From contig CAYNFH010000005.1 in NCBI GenBank assembly GCA_964396385.1, positions 1-63,590 of the forward strand: a stretch of 63,590 bases of DNA. Reading direction: 5' to 3'. The notes beneath the pieces were generated by a model. That model made no database searches. It worked only from the letters and a program-made list of their open reading frames with translations, and was not told where the DNA came from. Positions 366 through 58,126 of this stretch are shown piece after piece. How positions within the stretch are numbered: position 1 is the first letter of the stretch; every line of letters starts with the position of its first letter. This DNA comes from an uncultured Chthonomonadaceae bacterium (lineage in GTDB: Bacteria > Armatimonadota > Chthonomonadetes > Chthonomonadales > CAJBBX01). A program made the translations under genes and the position numbers.

Positions 366-730
366 GATACTGCGTCCCTTCTGGAGGAGCCGGGCCGCCC
401 ACCGGCCCGGCGTGTCAAAGCGTATTATGGAAGCGGCGCGGCAGAAGTCAATCAGCCATCCGGCAGATTGTGACGTGAATCTAATGGTGGCTGGGCGCTA
501 CAAGCCCTCACCCCCGGGTCGTACTCGCTACTGTGTCCTACTCTCCGCCCGCTCCACAACTGGCCGGTCTGCGCCGCCGCTCGAACGGCGGATCCGGACG
601 CCCGCCACAGCAGGATACAAGGTGAACGTCGTTTAAGCTCTGTTTATGCCGAACTTAATGTTCGCCAGATAGGATGAACGCGACCGAACGAGGCGCGCAC
701 GGCATCCGAACACTGAGAGGAGAGTAAGAG

Positions 731-1720
731 ATGATAGCAAGGTGGGTTGCGGCGGCTTCGATCCTCATGGCGGTTGGCGTACCGGCGGGGGCCGCCGCGC
801 CCTCGGCCAGCGTGGTGTCTCGCGGGGCGCGCATAACGCTCGGAAGCGTCCTGATGCCGGAAGGCACCACTATCCTACTCTTCACGCAGGACACCAGCGC
901 CATGGAGCAGCAGTACCTCGCGGACCTGGAAAAGCAGGTCCCCTCCGGCGCGAAGGTGGCGCTGGACGTGGTCCGCCTCAAGGACGTGAGCGCGCCCGCC
1001 GCCCAGCAGTTCAAGGTCACGGCGACGCCCACCGCGGTTGTCTTCGACCGCTTTGGCCGGGAGCTGGGCCGCTCCTCAGATGCCGCGGAGATACAGGCCG
1101 CCGTGCGCAAAGGCATGCTGATGGGCCGAATAAAGTGGGTGGACGAGGACGAGCCCAGGGCGCCGGAGGTGTACGGCGCGCCGGCGGAAGCCATCAAACA
1201 CGGGATCCCGGGCATCGTGAAGACTATGTCCATGACCCCGAATGCCTTCCGGATGTTCAACATCATGTCCGAGATCCACTTTTCGGACGGGTTCCTCAAA
1301 AGGCGCGACCACGAGCTGATAGGCGCATACGTCTCCGGCCTCAATAAATGTAAGTATTGAGTGGGCTCGCACGCCGCCGCGTTGCGGGGGCAAGGAGCCG
1401 AAGATGCGCTGGTGGACGCGGTTGGCACGGGCGATCTGAGCAAGGTGAAGCTGGAGCCCAGGGACGCCGCACTGCTGAAGTTTGTGAAACTGCTGACCCT
1501 GACTCCCGCTCACACCCAGGATTCGGACGTGCAGGCGCTGCGCGACGCCGGCTTCACGGACGAGCAGATCTGGGAGATCGCCTACGAGGTGAGCATGTTC
1601 TCATTCGTCAACCGCATGGCGGACGCGTATGGCCTGGACTATCCGAGCGGCGGATGGTACCCGCCTGCATTGAGGGAGAAGATGGAGCGCGAAAAGTCCG
1701 GCCAGAGCTCGAGCCGGTAG
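731..1720 (+). CDS. exported thioredoxin-fold-like + AhpD/CMD-family (peroxidase-related) protein, read through in-frame UGA 1358..1360 (predicted selenocysteine)
   Basis: Track ORFs 731..1360 and 1361..1720 are contiguous and in the same frame. The junction reads SGLNKCKY-TGA-VGSHAAALRG. That is the C-x-x-C-x-x-x-H active-site pattern of AhpD/carboxymuconolactone-decarboxylase proteins with TGA at the second Cys. There is an SD-like GAGGAG upstream of ATG 731 and a signal-like N-terminus MIARWVAAASILMAVGVPAGAAAP. Confidence 0.7.
1364..1399 (+). other. candidate bacterial SECIS-like stem-loop starting 4 nt after UGA 1358..1360
   Basis: Hand fold only. Lower stem is GGCUC(1364-1368)/GAGCC(1395-1399), followed by an internal loop. 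Upper stem is GCCGCCGC(1373-1380)/GCGGGGGC(1384-1391) with one G.G mismatch and an apical GUU loop about 21-26 nt after the UGA. Confidence 0.4.
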
Positions 1721-1765: not shown

Positions 1766-2338
1766 CTAACCCGGGTGGATCCTGCGCCGGGCGTGCCCCA
1801 CCCTGGCCGATTCCTGCTCTGCCAGCAGCCGGTATACTGCCCGCTCGAGCTCCGCATCGTCGTCGGATGAATATCCCACCATGTACCATCGGATGCGGCC
1901 TCGCCGGTCGATGAGGAACACGGTGGGTGTGGCATCCACCCCATAACGGTTGAAGATCCTCTTGTTTCCATCCGGCGAAGTGACCGTGGGGTAAGTCAGC
2001 CCGTACCGCTTGACTGCCGCAGGCACGCCTTTCGCGGTGTACGACTTGTCGTCGCTGATTCCCAACACGACCAATCCGTAAGGTCGGTATTTCGCGTACA
2101 GCGCCTGGACTGCCGGGAGTGATTCTCGTGCAGGGGGGCACCAGGAGGCCCAGAAGTGCAGGAGCACGACTTTGCCGCGGAGAGACGCGAGAGAGACGGA
2201 CGCTCCCTTGGCGGCGCGCATGGTGAAGTTTGGCGCAGCCACAGGCTTGACCGACACGGCTTGACCGGATGCAGCGATGGGGCAGGTCAGCGCGGCAACT
2301 GCCCCGGTAATGGCGCACGACTTCACGGCTCTGTTCAT
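1766..2338 (-). CDS. TlpA-like thioredoxin-family redoxin, monothiol variant (WCPPA instead of WCPPC)
   Basis: VVLLHFWASWCPPARESLP and GLVVLGISDD are redoxin/TlpA hallmarks. I trimmed the track ORF (1766..2665) to ATG 2338 (MNRAVKSCAITGAVAALTCPIAASGQ, signal-like), which has AAGGAG about 8 nt upstream. Confidence 0.8.
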   Translation of the reverse strand: MNRAVKSCAITGAVAALTCPIAASGQAVSVKPVAAPNFTMRAAKGASVSLASLRGKVVLLHFWASWCPPARESLPAVQALYAKYRPYGLVVLGISDDKSYTAKGVPAAVKRYGLTYPTVTSPDGNKRIFNRYGVDATPTVFLIDRRGRIRWYMVGYSSDDDAELERAVYRLLAEQESARVGHARRRIHPG

Positions 2339-5493: not shown

Positions 5494-6636
5494 ATGCCAA
5501 ATCTGTTTACGCTGAATCGCCGGGTATTCTGTCTGCTCGGCCTGCTCATCCTGACACTGTACGGCGCCGCCCATGCCCAGGGGACCTGGACAGAGGTTGG
5601 GCCGATGACGAGCCCTCGGGATGCGCACCGCCTGGTGATGGTAGACACCTTTGTGGGGCCGCTGCCGCTGAACATCGGCGGTCGCATCAGCGCATTGGGA
5701 TTCACCACGCCCTCTACGGAGTACTACGTTCCCTTCGCGTTCCTCTTTGTCCCCGGGTTTCCCATGGAGCACAGCCGCAGCTTCTTCCCGGCGGTAACGC
5801 TGAGCAACGGCAATGTGCTCGCGGCCGGCGGCTATAGCCAGACCGTGGGCGGCGGCACCATCAGCGCCTGCGACCTCTACAACGCGACATTCGGGCTCTG
5901 GCTGCCGACCGGAAGCATGCGATACCCGCGAGAGCTGCACACCGGGACCTTGCTGCCGAACGGTAAGGTGCTGATGGCGGGGGGCTTCAGCAACGGCGCG
6001 ATCCTGAACACGGCGGAACTGTACAATCCCGCTACAGGCAGTTTCAGCTCCACCCGCAGCATGAAGAACACCCGCTTCGGGCACAGCGCCACGCTGGTCA
6101 ATGGCCAGGTCCTTGTTGCGGGCGGCCGGACAGCCAACAACGTGTCGCTGGACGCGACCGAGTTCTACAATCCCTCTACCGGGCACTGGTCCGCCGGCCC
6201 CTCAATGACGGCCGACCGGTTCCGGCACACGGCCACAGTCCTGCAGAGCGGCCTGATTCTCATCACCGGCGGATACAGCTCTTCCCAGGGCCAGACGCTC
6301 AACACTGCGGAGCTTTACGACCCGTCCACCAACCAGTTCACGGCGCTCTCCTCCACCATGAGCGACGGCCGTATGGACCATACGGCTACTCTCTTGCCGG
6401 ACGGAACGGTGCTGATTGTGGGAGGGTGGAGCTCGGAGAAGGCGAGCACCGTGGAGTCCGCCGACCTGTTCGATCCGGTGACGAATACGTTCTCGCCCGC
6501 CGCGCCGCTCCCGGTCGGGCGCCACGAGCACGCGGCGGTGCTACTGCCGGATGGAACGGTGCTGCTCACGGGCGGCTTGGAGTTTGACGCGGTGGCGCAG
6601 CAGACTCTGAACGACGCCTACGTCTTCACGCCCTAA
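5494..6636 (+). CDS. secreted Kelch-repeat beta-propeller protein
   Basis: Repeated LPNGKVLMAGG / LVNGQVLVAGG / LQSGLILITGG / LPDGTVLIVGG / LPDGTVLLTGG units alternate with AELYNPATG-type linkers. ATG 5494 has GGAGG 9 nt upstream and gives signal peptide MPNLFTLNRRVFCLLGLLILTLYGAAHAQG. The track start is GTG 5479. Confidence 0.8.
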   Translation: MPNLFTLNRRVFCLLGLLILTLYGAAHAQGTWTEVGPMTSPRDAHRLVMVDTFVGPLPLNIGGRISALGFTTPSTEYYVPFAFLFVPGFPMEHSRSFFPAVTLSNGNVLAAGGYSQTVGGGTISACDLYNATFGLWLPTGSMRYPRELHTGTLLPNGKVLMAGGFSNGAILNTAELYNPATGSFSSTRSMKNTRFGHSATLVNGQVLVAGGRTANNVSLDATEFYNPSTGHWSAGPSMTADRFRHTATVLQSGLILITGGYSSSQGQTLNTAELYDPSTNQFTALSSTMSDGRMDHTATLLPDGTVLIVGGWSSEKASTVESADLFDPVTNTFSPAAPLPVGRHEHAAVLLPDGTVLLTGGLEFDAVAQQTLNDAYVFTP

Positions 6637-6691
6637 CCGGACCTGCCAGAAGTCCAACGCGGGAGAGCCGTGGTTTCTTCCCGAGCGGCCA

Positions 6692-7474
6692 CTAGCCCTG
6701 GACGGGCTTGCGGGCGAGAAGGGAGAAGGTGTTGGGAAGCCGGTGGAGCGTGTCCAGAGGGATGTAGGGCAAGGGGTCCCAGAACGGCTCCGGGTGCTCC
6801 TCCAGCCGCTCCAGGACGAGGCCCCCGTCAATCACCGCGTTGACGATCTGGCCCAGCGTCCACTGGCGGGCAACAGCCCCGGGCGGAAAGTCGCCCTCGC
6901 GGTTCGGGCGAGGCAGTTGCGAGAAGTAGTCTCCGCCATCGTCCCGGAGCACGAACGTCTCCGCGTTCGGCTCCCAGACCCAGGTCAGCGGGTGCGCCTC
7001 GAAAACATAGAGGAGCCCGCCGGGCTTCAGGAGCCGGTAAATCACGGCTGCCCAGCCCTCCAGGTCCATCATCCAGCAGAGGGCGCCCTTGCCGGTGTAA
7101 ACCAGGTCCGCGGTCCCGTCCAGGGTGTGCGGCGTCTCCTGTACGTTCGCCTGGACCCAGGCAGCGGGCGCGCCGAGCCGCTCGCCCTTGAGCCGCGCCT
7201 GCGCCAGCATCTCCGCGCTGAAGTCTACCCCTACCACCTCATGCGCGCCCATGTTCCAGAGCGAGAGGGCATCGCGGCCGTGGGAGCACTGAAGGTGGAT
7301 GGCACGCCGGCACCAGAAGGAGAGGTCCCCGAGGAGCCGGCGCTCCGGTTCCATCAGGTTGACGCCGCCCGACCGCAGGAAGGCAACGTCCGCTTCCACC
7401 TCGCCCGCGTACTTGCGCAGGGCTAGCGCGTTCCACGCACGCTCGTTTACCGCGTAAAGGTCGTCCGCCGTCAC
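6692..7474 (-). CDS. class I SAM-dependent methyltransferase
   Basis: VVGVDFSAEMLAQA (motif I region) and LKPGGLLYVFEAHP (motif III-like). 260 aa. Confidence 0.7.
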   Translation of the reverse strand: MTADDLYAVNERAWNALALRKYAGEVEADVAFLRSGGVNLMEPERRLLGDLSFWCRRAIHLQCSHGRDALSLWNMGAHEVVGVDFSAEMLAQARLKGERLGAPAAWVQANVQETPHTLDGTADLVYTGKGALCWMMDLEGWAAVIYRLLKPGGLLYVFEAHPLTWVWEPNAETFVLRDDGGDYFSQLPRPNREGDFPPGAVARQWTLGQIVNAVIDGGLVLERLEEHPEPFWDPLPYIPLDTLHRLPNTFSLLARKPVQG

Positions 7475-7552
7475 GCCAAAGCCTCCCTGAGCGTTATACC
7501 CCGCTAGCGATTCAGAGGGTGTCCTTACACCTCACCCCCTTATCTGCATTCC

Positions 7553-9025
7553 ATGTCCGAATCCGGCGAGACGTGGCTCGGCCGGACCGGCTATCATAGC
7601 ACCATGGAACTGGATCATGATGCCTGCTACCGCGCGCTGCTCGCGCACGACGCCCGCTTCGACGGCGCGTTCTTCGTCGGGGTCTCCACCACCGGAATCT
7701 ACTGCCGCACGGTATGTCCCGCCCGCAGCCCGAAGCGGGAGAGCTGCGCGTTCTTCCCCAGCGCGGCGGCCGCGGAGCGTGCGGGTTATCGTCCCTGCCT
7801 GCGCTGTCGCCCGGAGCTCGCCCCCGGCAGGGCTCGCGTCGATTCCGTGAGCCGCCTGGCTGCGCGGGCGGTCAGCCGCATCGAAGACGGTGCGCTCACC
7901 GACGGCAGCGTGGAGGATCTGGCCGCCGAGATGGGGGTGACCGGACGGCACCTGCGCCGCGTGGTAGAGCGGGAAATGGGCGTCACACCGGTGGAGCTCG
8001 CGCAGACGCAGCGGCTCTTGCTGGCCAAGCGGCTCCTCACCGATACGGACCTGCCGGTCATCGAGGTGGCGTTCGCGAGCGGGTTCTCCAGCCTCCGCCG
8101 GTTCAACGCCCTGTTTCAGGAGCGGTACCGCCTGCGGCCAACCGATCTTCGGAGAGGGAGGGGTACCGCTCTGACGGACTCGATAGTCTGCGAAGTGGCG
8201 TACCGCCCGCCGCTGGATTGGGATGCGCTCCTGGAGTTCCTGGCCGCGCGGGCGATTCCCGGCGTGGAGGCGGTGCAGGGGAGTCGCTACCTGAGGACGG
8301 CCGCGCTGCGCAAAGGGCGGGGATGGATCGCTGTCGAGCCCTCTGGCGTACGCGACACGCTGCGCGTAGAAGTCTCGGCCTCGCTCGCCCCGGCCCTTGT
8401 ACCGGCGCTGGCGCGCGTGAAGCGGCTGTTCGACCTCGCAGCGGACCCGCTCAAGATTGCGGAGCGGCTGGGGATCCTGGCCTCCGCCCGCCCAGGGCTG
8501 CGGGTGCCCGGCGCGTTCGACGGATTCGAGATGGCCCTCCGTGCAGTTCTCGGCCAGCAGGTGAGCGTCCGCGCCGCGACCATGCTGGCCGGTAGGTTCG
8601 CCGCTGCATTCGGCGAGGCCATCGACACGCCCATCCCGGCGCTCTCGCGCCTGACTCCGAGTGCGGACCGTGTGGCGGGCGCCACGGTGGACGAGGTCGC
8701 TTCCCTGGGCGTTCCCGGGGCGCGCGCAAAGGCGATCCTGACGCTCGCTCGTGAAGTTTGCGAGGGCCGCCTCGCGCTGAAACCGGGTGTGGATCCTGGA
8801 GCCACTATAGTGCGGATCGAATCGCTGCCCGGCCTCGGCCCCTGGACCGCCCAGTACATCGCGATGCGGGCGCTGGCGTGGCCGGATGCTTTCCCGCACA
8901 CAGACCTCGGAGTACGGAAGGCGCTCGGGGAGTCCGATCCGAAGCGGGTCCTCGCCGTCGCCGAAGCGTGGCGCCCCTGGCGGGCGTATGCCGTGATGCA
9001 CCTTTGGTGCAAGGATGAGGGATGA
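7553..9025 (+). CDS. alkA: Ada-type methylphosphotriester sensor / AraC HTH fused to DNA-3-methyladenine glycosylase II (AdaA-AlkA fusion)
   Basis: FFVGVSTTGIYCRTVCPARSPKRESCAFF...GYRPCLRCRPE is the Ada Zn-Cys4 domain. An AraC-type HTH follows (DLAAEMGVTGRHLRRVVEREMGVTPVELAQTQRL), then an HhH-GPD glycosylase C-terminal half (LPGLGPWTAQYIAMRAL). Alternative start ATG 7604 (MELDHDACYRALL). The last codons KDEG-stop lie in repeat 9013..9062. Confidence 0.8.
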   Translation: MSESGETWLGRTGYHSTMELDHDACYRALLAHDARFDGAFFVGVSTTGIYCRTVCPARSPKRESCAFFPSAAAAERAGYRPCLRCRPELAPGRARVDSVSRLAARAVSRIEDGALTDGSVEDLAAEMGVTGRHLRRVVEREMGVTPVELAQTQRLLLAKRLLTDTDLPVIEVAFASGFSSLRRFNALFQERYRLRPTDLRRGRGTALTDSIVCEVAYRPPLDWDALLEFLAARAIPGVEAVQGSRYLRTAALRKGRGWIAVEPSGVRDTLRVEVSASLAPALVPALARVKRLFDLAADPLKIAERLGILASARPGLRVPGAFDGFEMALRAVLGQQVSVRAATMLAGRFAAAFGEAIDTPIPALSRLTPSADRVAGATVDEVASLGVPGARAKAILTLAREVCEGRLALKPGVDPGATIVRIESLPGLGPWTAQYIAMRALAWPDAFPHTDLGVRKALGESDPKRVLAVAEAWRPWRAYAVMHLWCKDEG

Positions 9026-9565: not shown

Positions 9566-10861
9566 CTACTCGGTTCGGCCCGCGGCGGTGAGCGCCTTGC
9601 GCAGCAGGTCGCGCGCCTCGGGGCTAGTCGGCCGCAGCTCCAGCGCCCGCTTGGCCTCCACGATTGCGTATTGGGGGTTCTGATGCTGGAGGTAGTAGCG
9701 GGCGACGTCCATGTGGGCTGCCGGATCGTTGGGCTGCAGGTCAACGCGCAGGGTCAGCCGGAGATGCGCATCGCTCACGGAGTGAGCACGCTGATACTCG
9801 CGGATCAGCGTGGCTCTCTTTTCTGGCTGACCCGTTCTGTTGTAGAGCTGTCCAAGCACGGAAAGCGCATTCTGAAAGCCAGGGTCGATGGCCCGGACCC
9901 GCTCAAGGTCCTGGATCGCGGCGGCCGTATTCCCCAGGCGAGACTCCGCCACTCCCCGCACATAGATTGCATTCAGGAGTCCCGGGTTCGACCGCAAGGC
10001 ATTCGTCGCATCCTGGATAGCCGCTTGAGGATTCAACATGGCCAGTTGGATCTCCGCTCGCCTCGCGAGATAGTAGGGCTTGTCCGGAAGCACAGGCAGT
10101 GCCTGATCAAGAAGCTTCAGCGCCTCCGCGTATCGGGTGTTGCGCCAGTAAAAGTCGATGAGCGGGGCGGTGATGGCCGGATCGTTCGGCGCGAGCCGGC
10201 GTGCAGTGAGCAGCTCCCTCTCGGCCAGCACGAAGTTGTTGTTCTGGATGTAGGCCATGCCTAGCGCCACGTGAAGATGCTCGTCGTTGGGGTGGGCCTT
10301 TACCGCGTCTATGAGGAGCTGGCGCGCCTGGGGATTCCAGCCGAGCATAACGTACCTGTACGCGAGGAGGCCCGATGCGCGGGCATCTTTAGGATGCAGG
10401 ACCAGCGCGCGCTTCAGCGCGTCGATCTCCAAGTCCGGATAGTTGCAGCCGTCGAATACCTCCGCGGCCGTGAGGAGCGGCTCTGCCCGTCCAGGAGCCA
10501 GCCTAACTGCCTCCTGGACCTCTTTCACTGCTTCAGGACACTGCTTCTGCCGCGCCAGCGCCAGCGCCAGCGCCTGGTGGGCGGCCGGATCCTTCGGCGC
10601 GGCTCCGGCCGCCCGACGCGCCGCATCCACCTCATCCCGCGCGGCCTGCTGGGCCTGCTGCTGGCGGAGACGCTCGGCCGCTTCCTGCCGGAGCCCCCGC
10701 GTGTCCTCGGCCAGCCTCCTTCTGAGAGGGATAGTTGCGAGCCACACCACTAGTAGGAGCGCCACAATCGCTAACAGGCCCTCCACGGGCAGACGCGATG
10801 TTCGTCGAGGCTGGCTATCCGCCGTCGGTGTCGGCTTTGCAGTAGCGCGCCGGGCTTTCAA
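9566..10861 (-). CDS. membrane-anchored TPR-repeat protein (third gene of TPR-CRTAC1-TPR cassette)
   Basis: N-terminal TM segment LLAIVALLLVVWLATI followed by multiple TPR-like units (ALALARQ..., AHPNDEHLHVALGMAYIQNNNF...). TTG start at 10861, 3 nt after the upstream stop. Confidence 0.7.
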   Translation of the reverse strand: MKARRATAKPTPTADSQPRRTSRLPVEGLLAIVALLLVVWLATIPLRRRLAEDTRGLRQEAAERLRQQQAQQAARDEVDAARRAAGAAPKDPAAHQALALALARQKQCPEAVKEVQEAVRLAPGRAEPLLTAAEVFDGCNYPDLEIDALKRALVLHPKDARASGLLAYRYVMLGWNPQARQLLIDAVKAHPNDEHLHVALGMAYIQNNNFVLAERELLTARRLAPNDPAITAPLIDFYWRNTRYAEALKLLDQALPVLPDKPYYLARRAEIQLAMLNPQAAIQDATNALRSNPGLLNAIYVRGVAESRLGNTAAAIQDLERVRAIDPGFQNALSVLGQLYNRTGQPEKRATLIREYQRAHSVSDAHLRLTLRVDLQPNDPAAHMDVARYYLQHQNPQYAIVEAKRALELRPTSPEARDLLRKALTAAGRTE

Positions 10862-10877
10862 CCTTCAACCTTCAACC
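10859..10877. repeat. tandem heptamer CAACCTT x2.7 (GGTTGAA on minus strand) spanning a stop/start junction
   Basis: The minus strand reads ctg gtt gaa ggt tga agg ttg aaa. The same repeat encodes the CRTAC1 C-terminus (LVEG-stop) and the TTG start of the next gene. Confidence 0.6.
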
Positions 10878-12583
10878 AGAGTCGTCAAGCGGTCCACGGG
10901 AACGTCGCGGTACTCCGTGCGGCGCCCGTCCGGCCAGCGGATGGCCACCTTCTCTACGGAAGTCGCAGCGCCAAGGCCAAAGTGCAGGCGCGGATCGTTC
11001 GCGGAGGCAAAGCTGAAGCAAGTATGCACGAATCCGGTCTGTTTACGGCCGCCGGCATAAAGCTCGACCGTTGCTCCGATAGCTTCCGCATCGGGGGCCC
11101 GAGACTTGAGCATCAGCTCCACCCAGTGCCGGCGCGGCATGTTGTTCCGCAATACCATGGCGGGGCCGCTGTTGTTGTTCACTACCATCGCGACGCCGCC
11201 GTCATTGAAAAGGTCCCCAAAGGCGAGGCCGCGTCCGACGGCGGGAGTAGTAACCGCCGGGCCCCCGTCGGAGGAGCGATCCTCAAAGACGCCATGTCCT
11301 CTATTTTCCAGATAGACGCGTGGCTCGCGGTAGTGAGACCCGGGCTGGATCTGGTCGATGTGGTCCTGCACGTGTCCGTTGGCGAGGAAGAGATCGAGCC
11401 AGCCGTCGTTGTTCAGGTCCGCAAACCCGACTCCGAAGGTCAGCAGGGGCCGGGTGACCGCCCCGATGCCGGCCTGCTGGGATACATCCTGGAATCCGCC
11501 CACGGGGCTGTAGCGCCAGAGCGGCTCCTCCTGGCCCTCGTAAACGCCGGTGGTGCACCCCAACGAGCCATCGCCCGTGAAGTCCCCGAAGTCGCACCCC
11601 ATATTGGAGACCGCCGCGCCCTCCCCGTTAAACGCGATGCCGGATTCCGCCGCGGTGTCGTGGAACCGGCCGCCGCCATCGTTGTGGTACAGGAAGTTGG
11701 CCGTTCCGTCGTTGGCCACAAACAGGTCCAGCTTACCGTCACGGTCGTAGTCCACCGTCACAATGCCCAACCCCCGCCCGGAGCTCTCCTGCAGCCCCCA
11801 TTGCGCAGTGACGTCCTTGAAGGTTCCGTCTCCCATATTGCGGTATGCCACGTCCGGCTCCGCCGGGTAGTCGTAGGGCGGACAGCTCGACGGGTATCCG
11901 CGAAAGTCGCAGAGCTGCTTGGACTGGGCGTTGAACTGGCAGTACCTGGCGACGTACAGGTCGGGCTTGCCGTCTCCATCCAGATCCGCAAAGGCGGCAG
12001 CAGTCGAGAAGCCGCCGGTCTCTACGCCTGCTCTCTGGGTCACGTCTTTGAACGTGCCGTTCCCCTCATTGTGGAAGAGGATGTTCTTACCATAGTAGGT
12101 GACATAAAGATCTAGCTTCCCATCTCCATCGTAATCTCCCACGGCGCATCCCATGCCGAAGCCGTGCCCCAGCCCCGCAACTCCGGCCTTCTGCGTCACG
12201 TCTGTGAAGGTGCCGTCGTGGTTGTTGTGGTACAGGTGGTTGCCGTCTCCGGGAGGTGACTTGCCGTTGACGAGGAAGATGTCCAGCCAGCCGTCATTGT
12301 CGTAGTCGAACACTCCGCAGCCCGAGCCGGTAGTCTCCACGATGTTGGCGCCCGCCCCCTGTCCGTTCTTGTGCTCGAAACGGATGCCTGCCTGCTGAGC
12401 GATTTCCGTGAAGAGAAACCGCCGGTCGTCTCCAGGCGGGGGGCGGCGGGTAGCGGGCGCCGGGCCGCAGCCGAAGAGGGCGAGGAGACAGAATGACGAG
12501 GCGACGCGGCGAACGGGCGAGGGGGCGAATCCGGACTCGCCGCGTCCCCGAGTCGCCGCGTCCCCGCGTCGGACCTCCGTCAT
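10865..12583 (-). CDS. CRTAC1-family lipoprotein (FG-GAP/VCBS repeats + ASPIC/UnbV C-terminal domain)
   Basis: Repeated DYDNDGWLDIFLVNG / DYDGDGKLDLYVTYY / DLDGDGKPDLYVARY / DYDRDGKLDLFVAND units. C-terminal ...FASANDPRLHFGLGAATSVEKVAIRWPDGRRTEY. Lipobox LLALFGC. The ATG overlaps the upstream stop (ATGA). Confidence 0.85.
   Translation of the reverse strand: MTEVRRGDAATRGRGESGFAPSPVRRVASSFCLLALFGCGPAPATRRPPPGDDRRFLFTEIAQQAGIRFEHKNGQGAGANIVETTGSGCGVFDYDNDGWLDIFLVNGKSPPGDGNHLYHNNHDGTFTDVTQKAGVAGLGHGFGMGCAVGDYDGDGKLDLYVTYYGKNILFHNEGNGTFKDVTQRAGVETGGFSTAAAFADLDGDGKPDLYVARYCQFNAQSKQLCDFRGYPSSCPPYDYPAEPDVAYRNMGDGTFKDVTAQWGLQESSGRGLGIVTVDYDRDGKLDLFVANDGTANFLYHNDGGGRFHDTAAESGIAFNGEGAAVSNMGCDFGDFTGDGSLGCTTGVYEGQEEPLWRYSPVGGFQDVSQQAGIGAVTRPLLTFGVGFADLNNDGWLDLFLANGHVQDHIDQIQPGSHYREPRVYLENRGHGVFEDRSSDGGPAVTTPAVGRGLAFGDLFNDGGVAMVVNNNSGPAMVLRNNMPRRHWVELMLKSRAPDAEAIGATVELYAGGRKQTGFVHTCFSFASANDPRLHFGLGAATSVEKVAIRWPDGRRTEYRDVPVDRLTTLVEG
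12523..12564. repeat. GGCGA-ATCCGGAC-TCGCC hairpin plus 13-nt direct repeat TCGCCGCGTCCCC x2, inside the CRTAC1 N-terminal codons
   Basis: Read directly. It carries the same GAATCCGGA core as the intergenic elements and encodes GDAATRGRGESGFAP upstream of the lipobox. Confidence 0.6.
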
Positions 12584-13776
12584 CGCGCCGCCTGTTTGGC
12601 TTCCGTCAGCCGGCCCATGGACTTGAGCGCCGATACCAGCAGGTCACGCGCCTGCTGGTCGCGGGGATTCAGCCGGAGCGCCTCGCGCAGCTCTACGACA
12701 GCGTCCGGTAATTGCCCCGTGTTGAGGTAGGCCCGTCCCATGTCCCGATGTGCGTTGGAGTCCGCGGGGTTGCGCATTACGGCGTCCCGCGCGGCGGCAA
12801 ACCGCTGCTCCTGATCGAATATAGCGCCGTACTGTCTACGCAGCCGGCTGCCCCTTGCGCGCCGGGCCGGATCGTGGGAGCGCAGGTAGAGGCTGCCGAG
12901 ATACTCCGAAACGCGCTCAAATCGCGGATCCTTACGGTACGTGACCTCGTATTGCGGGATGGCCTGCTGCCACTTGCCCGTTAGCTCCAGCGCCCGACCC
13001 AGCCAGTAGTGTGCGTCCGTGTCTTCTGGCCTTATCTTGAGCGCCGCGCGCGCGGCTTGCTCCGCGTCCTTGAAACGTGGGGGATGCCAGCGCGTGTCCA
13101 GCAGGAGGTGCGCCATGCCGACGTATGCCGCCTCCCTCCTGCGGGCGTCCGGCGCCAGGCGAATCACGCGGCCCAGCAGCCCCTCCGCTTCGTTCATCCG
13201 GCCCTGAAGCCGGTCCGCCTCTGCGAGCAGCACCAGGAGCTGGGTGTTGTCCGGGTGGCGCTTCAGTCCTTCTCGCGCCGCCTGTTCCATGGCCGGATAT
13301 TGGAAGCGCATGTAGGCCTGGGTTGCCAGATCGCTGAAGATTCGCGGATCGTCCGGGTTTACACGGATCGCCTGGAAGATAAGCGGCCGGGCACGATCAA
13401 ACCAGGCCAGCCGAAGATAGATCTCGGCAATACGCAGGGCGCTGTCGGAGTCGGAAGGGTTGAGCCTGGCTGCCGCCGCCAGCTCCTCTATCTGCCGGTC
13501 CAGGTATCCCGAACGAGCGTAAATGGTTGCCAGCCGCTTATGGACGGTGGCGTTGGAAGGCGCGGCGCGCTCAGCTTCTCGAAGTGCGGCAGCCGCGGCC
13601 GGGAGGTTGCCGGACTTCTCGTATGCCTGAGCTTTACGGAGGAGCGGCGTGACGCTGCCGGACTTCTGCGGGCGCTGCGTCAATGCCGTGGTGGCCTCTG
13701 TCGGCAGACTTATGAGGCCGCATAGGGCCATGGAAATGACCGCGGCGTAACGACAGCCGCGGCGGCGGGAGAACAT
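12580..13776 (-). CDS. secreted TPR-repeat protein (first gene of cassette)
   Basis: Signal-like MFSRRRGCRYAAVISMALCGLISLPTEA followed by about 9 TPR-like units (KAQAYEKSGNLPAAAAALREAERAAP...). Confidence 0.75.
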   Translation of the reverse strand: MFSRRRGCRYAAVISMALCGLISLPTEATTALTQRPQKSGSVTPLLRKAQAYEKSGNLPAAAAALREAERAAPSNATVHKRLATIYARSGYLDRQIEELAAAARLNPSDSDSALRIAEIYLRLAWFDRARPLIFQAIRVNPDDPRIFSDLATQAYMRFQYPAMEQAAREGLKRHPDNTQLLVLLAEADRLQGRMNEAEGLLGRVIRLAPDARRREAAYVGMAHLLLDTRWHPPRFKDAEQAARAALKIRPEDTDAHYWLGRALELTGKWQQAIPQYEVTYRKDPRFERVSEYLGSLYLRSHDPARRARGSRLRRQYGAIFDQEQRFAAARDAVMRNPADSNAHRDMGRAYLNTGQLPDAVVELREALRLNPRDQQARDLLVSALKSMGRLTEAKQAAR

Positions 13777-13805
13777 GATTGGGTTGAGGCGAGAAGGAGA
13801 GTTAG

Positions 13806-14045
13806 CTACTTTGTGGCAGCGGAAGTACCCATCGAACTCGGCCCGGGCGGCATAGGCAGCGGCGTTCCGTGCTTCTTCAGATACTCCTCCTGCATTGCCT
13901 TGAGGCCCGATCCGGCTCGCGAATACGCCTCCTCGGTCGACATGCTTGGCTTGTGGAAATATCTAAAATAGAAGAAGACGCAGATAACGATCGCTACGAT
14001 GACCACGACGGCTATACCGGCCGGTCCACTAATGTTTTGCTTCAT
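13806..14045 (-). CDS. small single-pass membrane protein
   Basis: 79 aa with TM segment IAVVVIVAIVICVFFYF. Co-directional, downstream of the pseudopilin gene. No recognisable family. Confidence 0.5.
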   Translation of the reverse strand: MKQNISGPAGIAVVVIVAIVICVFFYFRYFHKPSMSTEEAYSRAGSGLKAMQEEYLKKHGTPLPMPPGPSSMGTSAATK

Positions 14046-14090
14046 CGCATCAAACCCTTCCAGGCTGGAGGTCAGCCGGACTCAGTATAC

Positions 14091-14130
14091 CAGTGGCGTC
14101 CCGAACCGGTTCCAACTCGGGACGCCACTG
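14091..14130 (-). promoter_or_regulatory. perfect 14-bp intercistronic stem-loop between pseudopilin and small membrane protein genes
   Basis: CAGTGGCGTCCCGA(14091-14104) / loop ACCGGTTCCAAC / TCGGGACGCCACTG(14117-14130). No U-tract on the minus-strand RNA, so it looks like a stabiliser, processing or attenuation site rather than a canonical terminator. Confidence 0.6.
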
Positions 14131-14140
14131 GGACAGTAGG

Positions 14141-15067: not shown

Positions 15068-15159
15068 TCTTGCACTCCTCTGTGTAAGAGATTGGGGAAT
15101 AGCGCCCTCACAGGTGGGGCGCGCATTAGATAATGCCGGGGAAACCACTGCCAAGAATG

Positions 15160-54135: not shown

Positions 54136-55203
54136 ATGCGGCGCAGCACTGCTCCTACCCTCGCCGACGTCGCGCAGCAAGCCGGAGTCACCGCGATGGT
54201 GGCTTCGGTAGTGCTCAACGGCGCGCGCTCCTCTACCCGCGTCTCCGCGGCCACGCGGGCGCGCGTCCAGGAGGCCGCCGCCCAGCTCGGCTACCGCCGT
54301 AATGCCCTGGCGTTCGGCCTCACCCGCAGCCGGATCGATACTCTCGGGGTGGTCGCAACCGTGGTCGGGGAGGATATCAACCTCTACTTCCTGGAGCTGC
54401 TCAGCGGAATCCTGAGTGCGGCCGTGGAGCGCGGCCAGTCCACCAAAGTTTTTTCGCTTGCCGACTGGAAGCAGGACGCGGGCCGCATCCCAGGATTCTG
54501 CGACGGCCGCGTGGACGGGATCATCCTGATCGCGCCTTCCTTGCCGGATGATGTAGCGCTTGCGCTCCCGGCCCATACGCCGTTTGTAGCGATCCACTGC
54601 GACCGGCCCCTGGCGGGCATCCCGAACATCGGGATAGACGATGAGGGGGCAGCATACAGGATTACGAGCGACCTGTTGACCCGCGGTCACCGGCGGATCC
54701 TCCACTTCTCCGGCGACGCCGACATCGCCAGCGCGGCACAGCGGCTGAAAGGCTACCGTCGCGCGCTGGCGGACGCGGGCATCCCGTGGGATCCGTCACT
54801 CGTGCTGCCGGGCGGGTACTACATCGGGTCCGGGCGGGAGAGCATGCTGCGAGTGCTGCGGGAGTTTCCCGGCCAGGCTATGCCCTCGGCCGTGTTCTGC
54901 GCCAGCGACGCCATCGCATACGGCACGATGGAGGTGCTGGCGGAGCAGGGCGTGCGCGTGCCGGACCAGATCTCCGTTGTCGGGTTCGATGACGTGCTTC
55001 TGGCCCGCACCACGCGGCCGCCGCTCACCACCGTGCGCCAGCCCTTCCGCGCCATGGGGCGCCGCGCGGTGGAGATCCTGCTGGCCCGCATTGCGCACGG
55101 TGACGACCACACGGCCGATGCGGAGGAAGATTCGCGCGCCGAGCTCTTCCCGGTGGAGATAGTGGAGCGCGAGTCCGTCGGGCCGCCAAGGAGCGACGGA
55201 TGA
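54136..55203 (+). CDS. LacI-family transcriptional regulator (second copy, divergent from pseudopilin)
   Basis: MRRSTAPTLADVAQQAGVTAMVASVVLNGARS HTH plus a sugar-binding core. The stop codon lies in repeat 55195..55231. Confidence 0.85.
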   Translation: MRRSTAPTLADVAQQAGVTAMVASVVLNGARSSTRVSAATRARVQEAAAQLGYRRNALAFGLTRSRIDTLGVVATVVGEDINLYFLELLSGILSAAVERGQSTKVFSLADWKQDAGRIPGFCDGRVDGIILIAPSLPDDVALALPAHTPFVAIHCDRPLAGIPNIGIDDEGAAYRITSDLLTRGHRRILHFSGDADIASAAQRLKGYRRALADAGIPWDPSLVLPGGYYIGSGRESMLRVLREFPGQAMPSAVFCASDAIAYGTMEVLAEQGVRVPDQISVVGFDDVLLARTTRPPLTTVRQPFRAMGRRAVEILLARIAHGDDHTADAEEDSRAELFPVEIVERESVGPPRSDG

Positions 55204-55231
55204 CGGAGGACGGGAGACCGACGGAGGTGAC
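55195..55231. repeat. GACGG-heptamer array (GACGGAT GACGGAG GACGGGA GACCGAC GGAGGTGAC), half element
   Basis: Its reverse complement matches the CCGTC arrays at 21366..21396 and 32831..32855 unit for unit, but in a different order. Confidence 0.65.
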
Positions 55232-55324
55232 CCATGGCCACATGTGCTAAGCCGCACTTTACGCCCCAGGAGTACCTGGCCGGGCGGTCTGCTCCGAGAG
55301 AATAGAGGATTGTCAGCAGTGGAA

Positions 55325-56422
55325 ATGAAAGTCCGGGCGGCGGTCATGCCGGCTCCTGGAAGGCCGGTTGAAGTGCGGGATTATCCTGCGCCAGAGCCGG
55401 AGCCCGGCGCGGTTATTCTGCGCACCATCGCCTCGGAGGTGTGCGGCACGGACGTGCACCTCTGGCACGGCCGCCTTGGGGGAGTGCCCTATCCGCTGAT
55501 CCCCGGCCACGTGAGTGTAGGGCAGGTGGAAGCTACCGGCGGCCCGGTGGCCGATACGGAGGGCAGGCCCGTCCGGCCCGGAGAGGTGGTCACCTTCCTG
55601 GACGTGTGGGGCACCTGCGGCCGGTGTCGCCACTGTGCCGTGCTCAAGGCCACCACGCGTTGTCCTCACCGTAAGGTCTACGGCATCACCCTGGGCGCAG
55701 AGGACGGACTGTGCGGCGGCTGGAGCGAGAGCATCTACCTCCGGCCAGGCGTCCTGATGCTGCCGCTGGCGCAGGGTGTGACGCCCGACCAGTGGATAGG
55801 AGCGGGCTGCGGCCTTCCCACCGCCGTCCACGCCGTGGAGCTGGCGCGCATCGGGCTGGGCGACCGGGTGCTCATCCAGGGGAGCGGTCCCGTGGGCCTC
55901 TCCGCCTGCGCGCTCGCCCTTCTGAGCGGGGCCGGCTGGGTGGGCGTCATCGGCGCGCCGGAGGTGCGTCTGGCCGCCGCCAAACGGTTCGGCGCGGACT
56001 GGGCCGCCGACGTGACCTCCACCACGCCGGAGGAGCGGCTACGCGCTGTACGGGACGTCACCGGCGGTTATGGTCCCGACGTCGTGATCGAGGCCAGCGG
56101 CAACCCCCAGGCAGTGCGCGAGGGGTGCGAGCTGGTGCGGGACGCCGGCCGTTACGTCGTGGTGGGACAGTACACGGATAACGGGGAAGTGGCGCTCGAC
56201 CCGCACCTCCACATCAACCGCAAGCATCTGGAGGTCCGCGGCTGCTGGGGCTCGGACTTCTCGCACCTCTGGCGAGCCATGGAAGTCCTCCGCCGCTTCG
56301 GAGGCCGCATGGACTGGTCCGCCCTCATCTCGCGCCGGTATACGCTGGAGGAAGCCGGCGAGGCCCTCCGCGACGTAGAGAACCTGAAGGTGGTAAAGGC
56401 CGTCATTGTACCAAACGGCTGA
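55325..56422 (+). CDS. zinc-dependent alcohol dehydrogenase / MDR-family oxidoreductase
   Basis: EVCGTDVHLWHG, GHVSVGQV, and the structural-Zn motif CGRCRHCAVLKATTRC. ATG 55325 (MKVRAAVMPAPG). Confidence 0.8.
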   Translation: MKVRAAVMPAPGRPVEVRDYPAPEPEPGAVILRTIASEVCGTDVHLWHGRLGGVPYPLIPGHVSVGQVEATGGPVADTEGRPVRPGEVVTFLDVWGTCGRCRHCAVLKATTRCPHRKVYGITLGAEDGLCGGWSESIYLRPGVLMLPLAQGVTPDQWIGAGCGLPTAVHAVELARIGLGDRVLIQGSGPVGLSACALALLSGAGWVGVIGAPEVRLAAAKRFGADWAADVTSTTPEERLRAVRDVTGGYGPDVVIEASGNPQAVREGCELVRDAGRYVVVGQYTDNGEVALDPHLHINRKHLEVRGCWGSDFSHLWRAMEVLRRFGGRMDWSALISRRYTLEEAGEALRDVENLKVVKAVIVPNG

Positions 56423-56426
56423 CGGG

Positions 56427-56542
56427 GATTTTCCATTTTCCATTTTTCAGTTTTCAATTCTCAATTTGAATTCCGGAGTGTTGGAAGACTCGTGGCCCAC
56501 CGTTCTGCAATGGAAAACCGAAAACCGAAAACTGAAAATCGG
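56427..56542. repeat. NNTTTTC-heptamer palindromic element with GAATTCCGGAG core (same family as 35992..36047)
   Basis: The left array is GATTTTC CATTTTC CATTTTTC AGTTTTC AATTCTC AATTTGA ATTCCGG. The right array is GGAAAAC CGAAAAC CGAAAAC TGAAAATC. The right arm encodes MENRKPKTENR of the kinase. Confidence 0.8.
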
Positions 56543-58126
56543 CCTACGGAGTTGCTGGCCGCCATCGTGGAGTCGTCGGATGACGCCATTGTCAGCACGG
56601 ACCTGGAGGGCATCGTCACGAGCTGGAACCCGGCGGCAGAGCGGATCTACGGCTACAAGGCCGAAGAGATAGTCGGCCGGTCCAAGGGCATTGCCATCCC
56701 GGTGGACATGCCGGAGGAGCTCCCGTCCATCCTCCGCCGCATCCGCGCGGGCGAGCGCATCGAGCATTATGAGACCTCACGCATCCGCAAGGACGGCTCG
56801 CGCATCACGCTCTCCATCAGCGTCTCACCCGTCCAGTCCCCGGATGGCGCCATTGTGGGCGCCGCCACCATCGCGCGGGACATCACTCAGAGGAAGCGTG
56901 AGGAGACGGCGGCGCTCATCCTGGCCAAGGCCGGCGAGATTCTGGCCGGCTCTCTGGACTATCGGGGCACGCTGGAACAGGTCGGGGACTTAGTGGTGCC
57001 TCGCCTGGCGGACTGGTGCGTCATCGACCTCGTGCGGGATGGCCGGATAGACCGCGTGGCCGCCGCCCACGTGGAGCCGGCCAGGCGGGAGCTGGCCCGC
57101 GACCTCACGCGCCGCTTTCCTCCGAGCCTGGAGTCGCGGTTCGGCGTAGCAGAAGTCATCCGCACGGGCCAGGCGCAGGTGGTGGCGGAGATCACCGAGG
57201 AGATGCTTCGGGTCCCCGGGCGGGAGGAAGAGTATTTCCGGGCCCTCCAGGATCTGGGGCTCCGCTCCGGCATCTGCGTGCCCATGGCCGCCCACGGCAA
57301 GGTGCTCGGGGCCATCACGCTCATCCTCGCAGACGGCGGCCGCCGGTACGGGCCGGAGGACCTGACGCTGGCGCAGGAGCTGGCTCGCCGCGCCGGCCTC
57401 GCCGTAGACGGCGCGCTGCTCTACGAGTCCGCCCAGCGCGAGATAGAGCGGCGGGAGCGCACAGAGGAGGCCCTGCGCAGCCACCAGGCGGAGATTGAGG
57501 CCCTCAACCAGCGGCTGCGCAGGGCCATGCAGGAGACGCACCACCGGGTCCGCAACAACCTCCAGCTTATCGCCGCGCTGGCGGACATGCAGGCGGCTGT
57601 GGACCGGCCCACGGTACCGCGGGAGGAGCTGGAGCGAATTGGCGGGCAGGTGCGCGCCCTCGCAGCCGTCCATGAGATCCTCACCCGGGAGGCGGGCGCC
57701 GGAGAGGACGCCAGCGACATGTCCTCACGGGAGATGCTGGAGAAGTTGGCCACCCTCATCCGCGAGACGACACCCGCACAGTCCGTTACCGCGGATGTGC
57801 AGGACGTGCGCCTCTCTGCCCGGCAGGGTTCCTCCCTCGCCGTCATCGCCAACGAGCTGGCCACCAACGCGCTCAAGCACGGGGCCGACCACGTCACTCT
57901 GCGCTTCACCGTGGACGGCGATGTCGCTTCCCTCCACGTGGAGGACAACGGGCCTGGGTTCCAGGAGGACTTCGAACTGCCGCAGGACGACCGCGCGGGC
58001 CTCTCCCTGGTCCGGCACATCGCCCAGTGGGACCTTCAGGGGTCTGTCCAGTTTGCCAACCGGCCCGGCGGCGGAGGCATCGTGACTCTCACCATGCCGC
58101 TTACGCCGGATGCTGTGCCCGCCTGA
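56492..58126 (+). CDS. cytoplasmic PAS-GAF-HisKA_2/HWE-type histidine kinase
   Basis: PAS domain (AIVESSDDAIVSTDLEGIVTSWNPAAERIYGY), GAF-like middle region, H-box ETHHRVRNNLQLIAALADMQ, and C-terminal ATPase domain. GTG 56492 or ATG 56510. Confidence 0.8.
   Translation: MAHRSAMENRKPKTENRPTELLAAIVESSDDAIVSTDLEGIVTSWNPAAERIYGYKAEEIVGRSKGIAIPVDMPEELPSILRRIRAGERIEHYETSRIRKDGSRITLSISVSPVQSPDGAIVGAATIARDITQRKREETAALILAKAGEILAGSLDYRGTLEQVGDLVVPRLADWCVIDLVRDGRIDRVAAAHVEPARRELARDLTRRFPPSLESRFGVAEVIRTGQAQVVAEITEEMLRVPGREEEYFRALQDLGLRSGICVPMAAHGKVLGAITLILADGGRRYGPEDLTLAQELARRAGLAVDGALLYESAQREIERRERTEEALRSHQAEIEALNQRLRRAMQETHHRVRNNLQLIAALADMQAAVDRPTVPREELERIGGQVRALAAVHEILTREAGAGEDASDMSSREMLEKLATLIRETTPAQSVTADVQDVRLSARQGSSLAVIANELATNALKHGADHVTLRFTVDGDVASLHVEDNGPGFQEDFELPQDDRAGLSLVRHIAQWDLQGSVQFANRPGGGGIVTLTMPLTPDAVPA

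Follow-up and report, generated by a model that had tools for sequence, protein, structure and literature searches.

It is very probable that positions 731 to 1720 of the window (the whole 63,590-nucleotide stretch of DNA that was analysed) hold one gene, encoding a selenoprotein of 329 residues that belongs to the known 'AhpD-like, CxxU' family (TIGR01926 type). The find is real but ordinary, and it leaves existing knowledge of selenoprotein biology unchanged. It amounts mainly to a correction of annotation: public databases almost always carry the family as two pieces, a 'hypothetical protein' of 208 aa and a fragment of some 120 aa, and because of this split an envelope redox family of Armatimonadota and other soil phyla is invisible to function prediction. 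The gene also adds a selenoprotein to a phylum that goes unmentioned in the portions of the selenoproteome literature covered here. Beyond that, the relatives form a natural Sec/Cys/Gly series, on which the contribution of Sec to AhpD chemistry could be tested, and they provide a clean case of a SECIS element shifted by two codons within a conserved coding region.

One reading frame across a TGA

The complete coding sequence (731..1720, + strand) consists of 329 codons and a TAG stop at 1718-1720, with the TGA at 1358-1360 as codon 210. The start at 731 is fixed by an in-frame TAA at 725-727, and an SD-like AGGAG, read from the sequence, lies at 718..722, 8 nt 5' of the ATG. Divided at the TGA, the same stretch gives a 209-aa ORF that starts with ATG (731..1360) and a 119-aa ORF (1361..1720). 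The initial annotation had seen that the two are in a single frame with only the TGA between them, that the junction on read-through is SGLNKCKY*VGSHAAALRG, and that the second ORF has no Shine-Dalgarno sequence of its own. All three statements agree with the sequence: nothing like a Shine-Dalgarno element precedes 1361. From 692 to 1860 the window, TGA included, is matched without a difference by an independent public assembly (Logan, SRR12266071). A scan for promoters and terminators between 450 and 2450 found none.

Then there are the relatives. In a set of 165 family genes, taken from 162 loci and the window, the column of the UGA is occupied by TGA 162 times, by TGC twice and by GGG once, and the TGA is retained across Armatimonadota, Dormibacterota, Chloroflexota, Acidobacteriota and others. 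These genes were retrieved with a pattern that demanded a His four residues after Sec, and so the set is no test of the conservation of His214. Orthologues in other organisms have the TGA with the frame conserved on either side of it. At those loci whose contig reaches the next stop, the frame after the TGA stays open for 106-153 codons (with one exception, L088, at 57), and the downstream sequence is conserved up to a common motif, GLDYP..GW.PP. Third positions account for 53% of the differences downstream of the TGA and 60% upstream. As judged by comparison of the sequences, the downstream frame is under purifying selection. The fallback that had been offered, a plain pseudogene, can be set aside, given that the TGA and the frame beyond it are both conserved.

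The UGA had been assigned to the second Cys of a CxxC active site, with the expectation that homologues would have Cys in that column. It aligns in just this way with 3c1l, 6k40 and 2prr, and two natural full-length homologues, P0002 and P0080, do have Cys there. At the junction, full-length homologues read CKFCLGSH and CRYCVGSH. Database homologues end exactly at the UGA residue in 115 of 120 cases.

The hairpin after the UGA and rival readings of the codon

The putative SECIS element occupies 1364..1399 (+ strand). Its lower stem pairs 1364-1368 with 1395-1399, its upper stem pairs 1373-1380 with 1384-1391 (8 pairs, one G.G mismatch), and GUU at 1381-1383 forms the apical loop, so that the upper stem-loop spans 1373-1391. 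The hairpin begins 4 nt past the UGA and the loop lies 20 nt past it. The structure had originally been folded by hand and turns out to be the minimum free energy structure of the segment (-22.1 kcal/mol, z = -2.9, with 1 of 200 shuffles as good); the upper part folds at -12.6 to -14.1 kcal/mol. It satisfies every constraint of the published bSECIS model, namely a loop of 3-9 nt, an upper stem of 4-16 bp, a distance from the UGA of 16-37 nt, an MFE of -7.5 kcal/mol or lower, and a G within the first two positions of the apical loop.

By itself the hairpin is weak evidence and decides nothing, since 14% of all TGA trinucleotides in the GC-rich window also precede a hairpin that passes the bSECIS test. 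The same test is passed by 135 of 136 distinct TGA sites of the family (99%) and by 63 of 928 in-frame controls (6.8%), the extended structure being scored in family and controls alike; a version that scored the energy of the contiguous stem failed the window's hairpin on account of the G.G mismatch. In an alignment of 22 sequences the upper helix is 93.8% paired, and the lower stem is 75% paired across relatives. Pair 24:38 changes in compensatory fashion (CG 10, UA 5, UG 4, GC 3, unpaired 0; n = 22), and none of 500 shuffles reached the covariation score of the alignment. In 10 of 22 relatives the bases of 25:37 do not pair, and the upper stem in the window has the G.G mismatch. The hairpin is lost in the Cys-codon relatives L161 and L025, and in L162 the stem is kept with the loop G gone. 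Within the window's clade the hairpin lies 6 nt (two codons) nearer the UGA than in the other clades of the family. Rfam at gathering thresholds, applied to the whole window, has no match for the hairpin. A fold of 66 nt around the UGA is no better than its shuffles (z = -0.39); only hairpin-sized segments are.

Might the same machinery insert Cys? SECIS/SelB recoding could deliver it, always or when Se is scarce, by means of a CysRS-charged tRNA(ReC)/SelC*-type tRNA, and the product would be a CxxC protein. Such tRNA(ReC)-like tRNAs stand beside canonical tRNA-Sec in five of five Armatimonadota genomes with UxxU-type hydrogenases, and they decode UGA as Cys given a downstream SECIS (PMC13582414). 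Cys is also functional at the UGA position in natural homologues. The genomes of that study may belong to another order, however, the window contains no tRNA of any type, and selD, linked to the gene in relatives, would be superfluous for inserting Cys. Moreover, a codon that is one base away from TGC and TGT has been kept as TGA in 162 of 165 genes from several phyla, which suggests that Sec itself is selected. Insertion of Cys is on these grounds improbable.

Gene callers annotate the locus as two genes, and the GTG that follows the TGA directly, both here and in many close relatives, might allow ribosomes that stop at UGA to re-initiate at the adjacent GUG (UGAGUG), giving two separate polypeptides. 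This is very unlikely: in most members of the family the codon after the TGA is CTC, CTG, CTA or ACA, none of which is a start, position 1361 has no Shine-Dalgarno sequence, the break would sever the CxxC/His active-site helix of one compact domain, and where Cys occurs naturally the protein is fused and full-length. A lone in-frame stop does resemble a fresh nonsense mutation (or a TGC/TGT misread in sequencing or assembly), and decay does happen in this family, as the extra in-frame TAA downstream in the pair L008/L088 attests. Yet it is hardly credible that mutation or error should have put the same TGA into 162 of 165 independently assembled relatives, ahead of a frame that is open and apparently under purifying selection and of a conserved, covarying hairpin at a fixed spacing, and that an independent assembly should have the identical TGA. 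As for an altered genetic code, codes in which UGA is sense occur in some uncultured bacterial lineages, and one relative has Gly (GGG) in the UGA column. The chance that UGA stands for Trp or Gly in this organism is nevertheless negligible: TGA terminates half of the window's Pfam-confirmed ORFs (10 of 20) and is otherwise an ordinary stop there, that at 1358-1360 is the only one, over all 63.6 kb, to be flanked on either side by sequence of coding-like codon composition, and the column in homologues and solved structures holds Cys, not Trp or Gly.

The protein, its surroundings and a proposed mechanism

The active site lies in an all-helical AhpD-like/CMD domain (1166..1636, + strand; residues ~146-302). 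This domain had been proposed initially and finds support in two profiles: the read-through protein matches Pfam CMD (PF02627) with 48.4 bits against a gathering threshold of 23, and the whole protein, the stop being replaced by Cys, reaches 101.5 bits with TIGR01926 'peroxidase-related enzyme' over residues 157-301 (cut-off 81.8). The best structural match by sequence is 3c1l (E=2.5e-21), and 6k40 and 2prr can be aligned as well. An AlphaFold model of P0002, the Cys homologue (63% identical), has an overall pLDDT of 88.8, and its AhpD domain matches 6k40, 3c1l and 2prr with target TM scores of 0.72-0.76 in Foldseek, that is, with the expected fold.

The proton-relay residues of M. tuberculosis AhpD are Glu118, Cys130, Cys133 and His137 (PMC3141380). 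Cys207 (TGT, 1349..1351, + strand), the first of C-x-x-U, is invariant in alignment A1 and aligns with the first Cys of 3c1l, 6k40 and 2prr; Glu195 (1313..1315, + strand) is likewise invariant in A1 and corresponds by its spacing to Glu118; and His214 (1370..1372, + strand), four residues after Sec, aligns with the His of solved homologues and corresponds to His137. Sec210 (UGA, 1358..1360, + strand), placed at the second position of the C-K-Y-U motif by the column counts, the alignment and the independent assembly, presumably stands where AhpD has its attacking Cys133.

The N-terminus (731..799, + strand; MIARWVAAASILMAVGVPAGAAA...) resembles a signal peptide by heuristics: it has a hydrophobic core, whose best 10-aa Kyte-Doolittle mean is 2.5, and the twin-arginine motif is absent. 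Of the 102 homologues whose N-terminus is complete, 99 have K/R among residues 1-10; a hydrophobic core is present in 101 and a twin-Arg motif in 3. The N-terminal helix of the P0002 model has low pLDDT. Hydrophobicity and homologue N-termini together favour the signal-like N-terminus that the initial annotation had claimed, and the protein is probably exported. An exported selenoprotein had been thought unusual, and is less so in light of the portion of PMC13188914 that lists DsbA-like, DsbG-like and thiol-disulfide-isomerase-like selenoproteins.

Between signal and AhpD domain lies a Cys-less thioredoxin-fold domain (812..1120, + strand; residues ~28-130); its TPT cis-Pro-like motif is conserved, and P100 within it is invariant. 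The P0002 model shows it as b-b-a-b-a-b-b-a at a pLDDT of ~90-98, and Foldseek matches this part of the model to 2j23, 2fa4, 3hz4 and ERp46 3uvt (target TM 0.56-0.72, E ~1e-4). The module had been described initially as Cys-less and thioredoxin-like; the fold matches, and Cys is absent from it in the window protein and in 110 of 112 homologues. At helix 1 of this domain the window protein has no redox CxxC or UxxC. Pfam and NCBIfam give no match on the domain, Pfam thioredoxin included, and it is found in only 40 representative clusters among 1.84 billion proteins.

None of selA, selB, selD and tRNA-Sec lies within the 63.6-kb window, and the Sec machinery is therefore assumed for this organism and not demonstrated. 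ARAGORN found no tRNA-Sec in the window or in 60 related loci. The sole match of E. coli SelA, SelB and SelD by tblastn against the window and the 162 loci was a selD in L029, a more distant two-domain relative, 3 kb downstream of its gene and itself with a TGA in a UxxK motif. Canonical tRNA-Sec has been reported in Armatimonadota genomes (PMC13582414). In Chthonomonadales relatives the orthologue is adjoined by a deiodinase-like gene (FGSYT-TGA-PPF) and by a second AhpD-like gene with a TGA. An adjoining C[FH]Y-U-[IT]ESH paralogue was considered as a member of NF041238 and scored 67 bits against 175; it is another member of TIGR01926. Minus-strand ORFs of the window at 12583..13962 and 10868..12643, candidates for selA-selB by size and order, encode TPR and FG-GAP/ASPIC proteins. 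A further pair in one frame across a TGA, 55163..56419 and 56423..58123, proved to be two ordinary genes, for a zinc alcohol dehydrogenase and a PAS/GAF histidine kinase.

Convergent with the gene is an ORF for an exported-looking ResA/TlpA-like AhpC-TSA/Redoxin protein (1766..2338, - strand) with a single-Cys W-C-P-P-A site, scoring 81.5 bits with AhpC-TSA and 76.5 bits with Redoxin, and below the cut-offs of ResA-like models. It is a possible redox partner; as a conserved partner it was rejected, not being syntenic in close relatives. An ORF of ~300 aa that recurs next to the gene in 10 loci encodes a DUF1559/pilin-like protein. Its adjacency is read as coincidence because a member of the same family occurs elsewhere in the window.

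The layout of the gene, the conserved TGA, the continuous coding frame, the Cys/Sec column, the structure and covariation of the hairpin, the folds and the family assignment are shown by the analysis, whereas actual Sec insertion, export, chemistry, partner and electron donor are inferred. During translation the UGA at 1358-1360 would not be read as a stop; the hairpin at 1364-1399, acting as a bacterial SECIS, would recruit SelB-GTP-Sec-tRNA(Sec) to the ribosome, and selenocysteine would be inserted as residue 210. A cleavable Sec-type signal peptide would then direct the product to the cell envelope. There the active site Cys207-Lys-Tyr-Sec210, with Glu195 and His214 at the proton-relay positions of AhpD, may cycle between selenolate/thiol and selenenylsulfide, either reducing hydroperoxides directly or re-reducing an oxidised thioredoxin-fold peroxidase partner, the latter being the role of AhpD towards AhpC in M. 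tuberculosis. Binding of the partner or the substrate is the probable task of the redox-dead thioredoxin-like domain.

A bolder proposal is that the two-domain, signal-bearing form constitutes a distinct, essentially Armatimonadota-specific subfamily, the hub of a Se-dependent redox pathway of the envelope. Its partners would be two kinds of selenoprotein that adjoin it in relatives, deiodinase-like (FGSYT-U-PPF) and single-domain AhpD-like, or, alternatively, the single-Cys W-C-PPA redoxin that adjoins it in the window, and the dead thioredoxin domain would be the module on which the partner docks. I consider this doubtful.

Comparison with known systems

Like the E. coli fdhF-type SECIS and the bSECIS consensus, the hairpin is a stem-loop within the coding sequence straight after the UGA, with a small loop beginning G-U, a spacing of 20 nt and an energy well under -7.5 kcal/mol. 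It differs from the fdhF type in having no similarity of sequence, no Rfam match and a loop of 3 nt.

The protein shares with M. tuberculosis AhpD the CMD/AhpD helical fold, a CxxC-type site on the same helix, a Glu that precedes the first Cys by 12 residues and a His that follows the second by four, and, probably, the task of reducing a peroxidase partner by thiol/selenol. The two are not orthologues, since TIGR00777 gives only 20.1 bits against a cut-off of 191.95. The window protein has Tyr at the site of AhpD His132 (as in PA0269) and Sec at the site of Cys133. Whereas M. tuberculosis AhpD is cytoplasmic, this protein has an additional N-terminal domain and is predicted to be exported; the cytoplasmic lipoamide system could not be what supplies its electrons.

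By sequence (E = 1e-16 to 1e-21) as well as by fold (target TM 0.72-0.76) the nearest are the solved 'peroxidase-related' AhpD-core proteins, 3c1l (Mlr4105), 6k40 (D. radiodurans), 2prr, 2oyo and 2pfx. The layout of the active-site helix, ...N-x-C-x-Y-C-x-x-x-H..., is identical, but these are single-domain Cys proteins of ~190 residues that lack a signal peptide. NF041238 'AhpD_rel_CFYUT' is similar in being AhpD-related and CxxU, with a profile of ~350 residues whose AhpD part lies in the C-terminal half. The window protein is not a member, since it scores 56.4 bits against a cut-off of 175; its motif is C-K-[FY]-U-[VL]-G-S-H (CKYUV in the window), that of NF041238 C-F-Y-U-T.

AhpD-like selenoproteins are, as had been said initially, a known bacterial class (PMC1088965, PMC2398784). 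The family (COG2128) has been predicted since 2005 (Zhang et al., PMC1088965) and was named 'AhpD-like 1' in GOS 2008 (PMC2398784), and the visible portion of Table 1 of PMC13188914 lists TIGR01926 as the model for 'AhpD-like protein, CxxU, 1 Sec'. The opening rows of that table's 'experimentally verified' block do not include the family. The portions of the selenoproteome literature on the AhpD-like family covered here describe neither the two-domain architecture nor members from Armatimonadota. The window protein resembles the AhpD-like CxxU family in passing TIGR01926, in its one Sec at the second position of CxxC, in a SECIS directly downstream with a G in the apical loop, and in having Cys homologues. 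What sets it and ~140 relatives apart is the addition of a predicted signal peptide and a Cys-less thioredoxin-fold domain, an architecture nearly limited to Armatimonadota-labelled MAGs.

One gene with a probably recoded UGA site

The reading frame of the gene opens on the plus strand at ATG 731, preceded by AGGAG (718-722) and an in-frame TAA (725-727), and runs to TAG 1718-1720 with TGA 1358-1360 (...YVSGLNKCKY-TGA-VGSHAAALRG...) as its sole interruption. The initial annotation described two contiguous ORFs in one frame, split only by this TGA, the second without a Shine-Dalgarno of its own. The sequence is exactly so, and no Shine-Dalgarno-like sequence lies upstream of 1361. When the 63.6-kb window was scanned on both strands, no further TGA proved to be flanked by coding-like codon composition before and after it. 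In a second public assembly (Logan, run SRR12266071) the stretch 692-1860 has the identical sequence, TGA included.

Is the TGA an error, the mark of a pseudogene, or a sense codon in a reassigned code? A search over 5.8 billion proteins listed 120 relatives, of which 115 (among P0003-P0119, the database homologues) are truncations of about 208 aa ending in ...LN[KR]C[KR][FY], the window's stop position; three of those listed are full-length, reading CKFCLGSH, CRYCVGSH and CRYGLGSH. Public gene calls, then, break the family at the UGA, naming the truncated piece "hypothetical protein" where they name it at all and calling the C-terminal 119-aa piece as a separate gene (locus L165, 40-1029). 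In the relatives' DNA (80 loci taken from genomes of GTDB species, 80 from metagenomes), the codon in this column is TGA in 162 of the family genes found, TGC in two and GGG in one. The nearest carriers, 58-75% identical, are labelled Chthonomonadales and Chthonomonadaceae, further ones are other Armatimonadota, and single-domain versions occur in Dormibacterota, Chloroflexota, Acidobacteriota and others. Wherever the contig reaches the next stop, 106-153 codons lie open past the TGA, bar L088 (57), and the protein they encode is conserved up to a common GLDYP..GW.PP motif; third-codon positions account for 60% of differences upstream of the TGA vs 53% downstream. Because the TGA column, the open downstream frame and the protein sequence are all conserved, pseudogene and sequencing error are excluded. 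So is a reassigned code, since TGA is a normal terminator in the window, ending 10 of its 20 Pfam-confirmed ORFs.

The exceptional L088 (a metagenome contig) and L008 (a MAG contig) are one relative, with an extra in-frame TAA 57 codons past the TGA (...DADV*AMREAGW...), within the conserved C-terminal domain: the copy is decaying, or both records share the same error.

A hairpin shifted within coding sequence

The stem-loop that had been drawn by hand at 1364-1399 is also what folding by minimum free energy gives (-22.1 kcal/mol, z = -2.9). The bacterial SECIS model (PMC13188914) calls for an upper stem of 4-16 bp capped by an apical loop of 3-9 nt, for a G within the first two positions of that loop, usually with G or U next, and for a UGA-to-loop distance of 16-37 nt with a minimum free energy of -7.5 kcal/mol or lower. 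The hairpin agrees with the model on all four counts, with loop GUU (1381-1383, plus strand) 20 nt from the UGA on an upper stem of eight pairs with one G.G mismatch (1373-1380/1384-1391; -12.6 to -14.1 kcal/mol). These criteria are not very selective in DNA of 66% GC: of the window's TGA trinucleotides, 14% pass. Within the family's genes, 135/136 distinct TGA sites pass vs 6.8% of in-frame control sites.

Across the window's clade (22 distinct sequences), 93.8% of cells in the upper helix are paired, and one pair appears as C-G (10), U-A (5), U-G (4) and G-C (3), never unpaired. A second covaries by way of substitutions that change the amino acid (Ser/Arg, Ala/Gln, Ala/Ser), though mismatched in 10 of the 22, the window among them. 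None of 500 shuffles reached the observed covariation score, and pairing falls from 87% in register to 31-60% when partners are slid. The natural Cys- and Gly-codon controls behave as expected for a SECIS. The hairpin is lost in L161 (TGT), the closest Cys-codon relative, and in L025 (TGC), while L162 (TGC) keeps the stem with a loop, AAAU, that lacks G.

A two-domain relative, L023 (10538), has GGG in the Sec column (CRYGLGSH) and an intact Sec-type hairpin, CCUGC-AGUU-GCAGG. Sec may have been lost here recently, as the persistence of the hairpin beside a Gly codon suggests, or the variant may be redox-inactive.

Counted from the U of UGA, the GUU loop of the window's clade occupies nt 24-26, over Ala-Leu-Arg (GCG-TTG-CGG); that of other clades (L013-L080, e.g. 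L030 300-303) occupies nt 30-32, over Gln-Leu-Gln (CAG-TTG-CAG). The difference is two codons, and the protein alignment shows no indel: the SECIS has shifted inside a conserved coding region.

Active site, predicted export and a candidate partner

Scored with Cys at the stop position, the 329-residue product exceeds the cut-offs of both families to which it had been likened, Pfam CMD (PF02627; 48 bits, cut-off 23) and NCBIfam TIGR01926 "peroxidase-related enzyme" (101.5, cut-off 81.8), and fails those of TIGR00777, the M. tuberculosis-type AhpD (20, cut-off 192), and NF041238, AhpD_rel_CFYUT (56, cut-off 175). Its C-terminal half matches solved structures 3c1l, 6k40, 2prr, 2oyo and 2pfx (E = 1e-16 to 1e-21), in which the UGA column is the second Cys of an N-x-C-x-Y-C-x-x-x-H helix, the CxxC position first claimed for the stop codon. 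The AhpD proton relay, Glu118, Cys130, His132, Cys133 and His137 (PMC3141380), corresponds by spacing to Glu195, Cys207, Tyr209, Sec210 and His214, with Glu195 and Cys207 invariant in the alignment. Sec occupies the second active-site Cys position of an AhpD fold that carries the relay residues.

The AlphaFold model of P0002, a natural Cys homologue 63% identical (mean pLDDT 88.8), resembles AhpD-type structures in its C-terminal domain (Foldseek, target TM 0.72-0.76) and thioredoxins 2j23, 2fa4, 3hz4 and ERp46 over residues ~26-128 (0.56-0.72). The latter domain lacks Cys in 110/112 homologues, bearing out the Cys-less thioredoxin-fold-like module suggested earlier. No Pfam or NCBIfam model matched it, and it is rare: 40 representative clusters in 1.84 billion proteins, nearly all of the same architecture. 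The signal-like N-terminus also holds up, by heuristics only, in essentially all 102 complete homologues, which look Sec-type; three have a twin-arginine motif. To judge by sequence, some might be lipoproteins, 34/102 having a lipobox-like [LVI][ASTVI][GAS]C near the start of the signal (e.g. MKSFVIGLAAC...). The window protein has no such motif and no Cys in its signal region.

I propose that Sec is inserted via SelB at UGA 1358-1360, that the Sec translocon would export the product, and that Cys207 and Sec210 may cycle through a selenenylsulfide, reducing peroxides or re-reducing a peroxidase partner of thioredoxin fold, in the way AhpD serves AhpC. The redox-dead thioredoxin-like domain would serve for docking. 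A candidate partner is the convergent neighbour (1766-2338, minus), a ResA/TlpA-like AhpC-TSA/Redoxin protein by profile matches, with a single-Cys W-C-PPA in place of the usual WCxxC; pairwise, its Cys falls opposite the Sec of the deiodinase-like proteins, though the match is weak (29% over 55 aa, E = 2e-4). In relatives this redoxin is not syntenic with the two-domain gene.

Elsewhere, a partial minus-strand ORF at the window's edge (3-497) resembles, by eye, a phosphoketolase N-terminus, and the minus strand also encodes two FG-GAP/ASPIC (UnbV) repeat proteins (10868-12643, 49871-51550) and a DUF1559/pilin-like protein (14144-15373). In 10 relatives a DUF1559 member adjoins the AhpD-like gene, which is probably coincidence.

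Probable Sec decoding and the known selenoproteins

The 63.6-kb window contains no tRNA of any kind and no SelA, SelB or SelD homologue, nor does it have the other TGA genes of its relatives. In Chthonomonadales relatives the two-domain gene adjoins a deiodinase-like gene (PF00837; NF038285 190 bits, under its cut-off of 250) whose classic FGSYT-U-PPF site holds a TGA (L012 5959-8000, L009 8305-10930, L085 3189-3710 minus). In L012, whose 5959-8000 is the same sequence as L084 4704-6980, three TGA genes stand head to tail: the deiodinase-like gene, a single-domain CFY-U-IESH AhpD-like gene (TIGR01926, 116 bits) and the two-domain gene. Locus L029 has a selD homologue (13586-14593) 3 kb downstream of the two-domain TGA gene, 38% identical to E. 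coli SelD and with its own TGA at 13586, within a UxxK motif (GAGG-U-AGK). Canonical tRNA-Sec has been reported in Armatimonadota genomes (2026; PMC13582414). Indirectly, all these point the same way, to Sec decoding in the lineage. The same report describes tRNA(ReC)-like tRNAs in Armatimonadota that decode UGA plus SECIS as Cys; that one of these reads the present site seems unlikely, yet it is the main rival to Sec insertion.

In L032, a MAG labelled Acidobacteriota, an AhpD-like TGA gene of the single-domain type (10271) is directly followed by a deiodinase-like homologue (10845-11351), 45% identical to that of L012, so the pairing recurs across phyla.

The conserved TGA, Cys column, SECIS and TIGR01926 match support the selenoprotein first read in 731-1720. 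A specialist would find it unsurprising. The prediction of AhpD-like CxxU selenoproteins dates from 2005 (PMC1088965), and they are among the most abundant families of ocean metagenomes (PMC2398784). The current inventory (PMC13188914) places them under TIGR01926, and since the gene passes that cut-off, it belongs to this known family. Particular to it are the predicted exported two-domain architecture, the near-restriction to Armatimonadota and the systematic mis-annotation, and the family is well suited to experiments.
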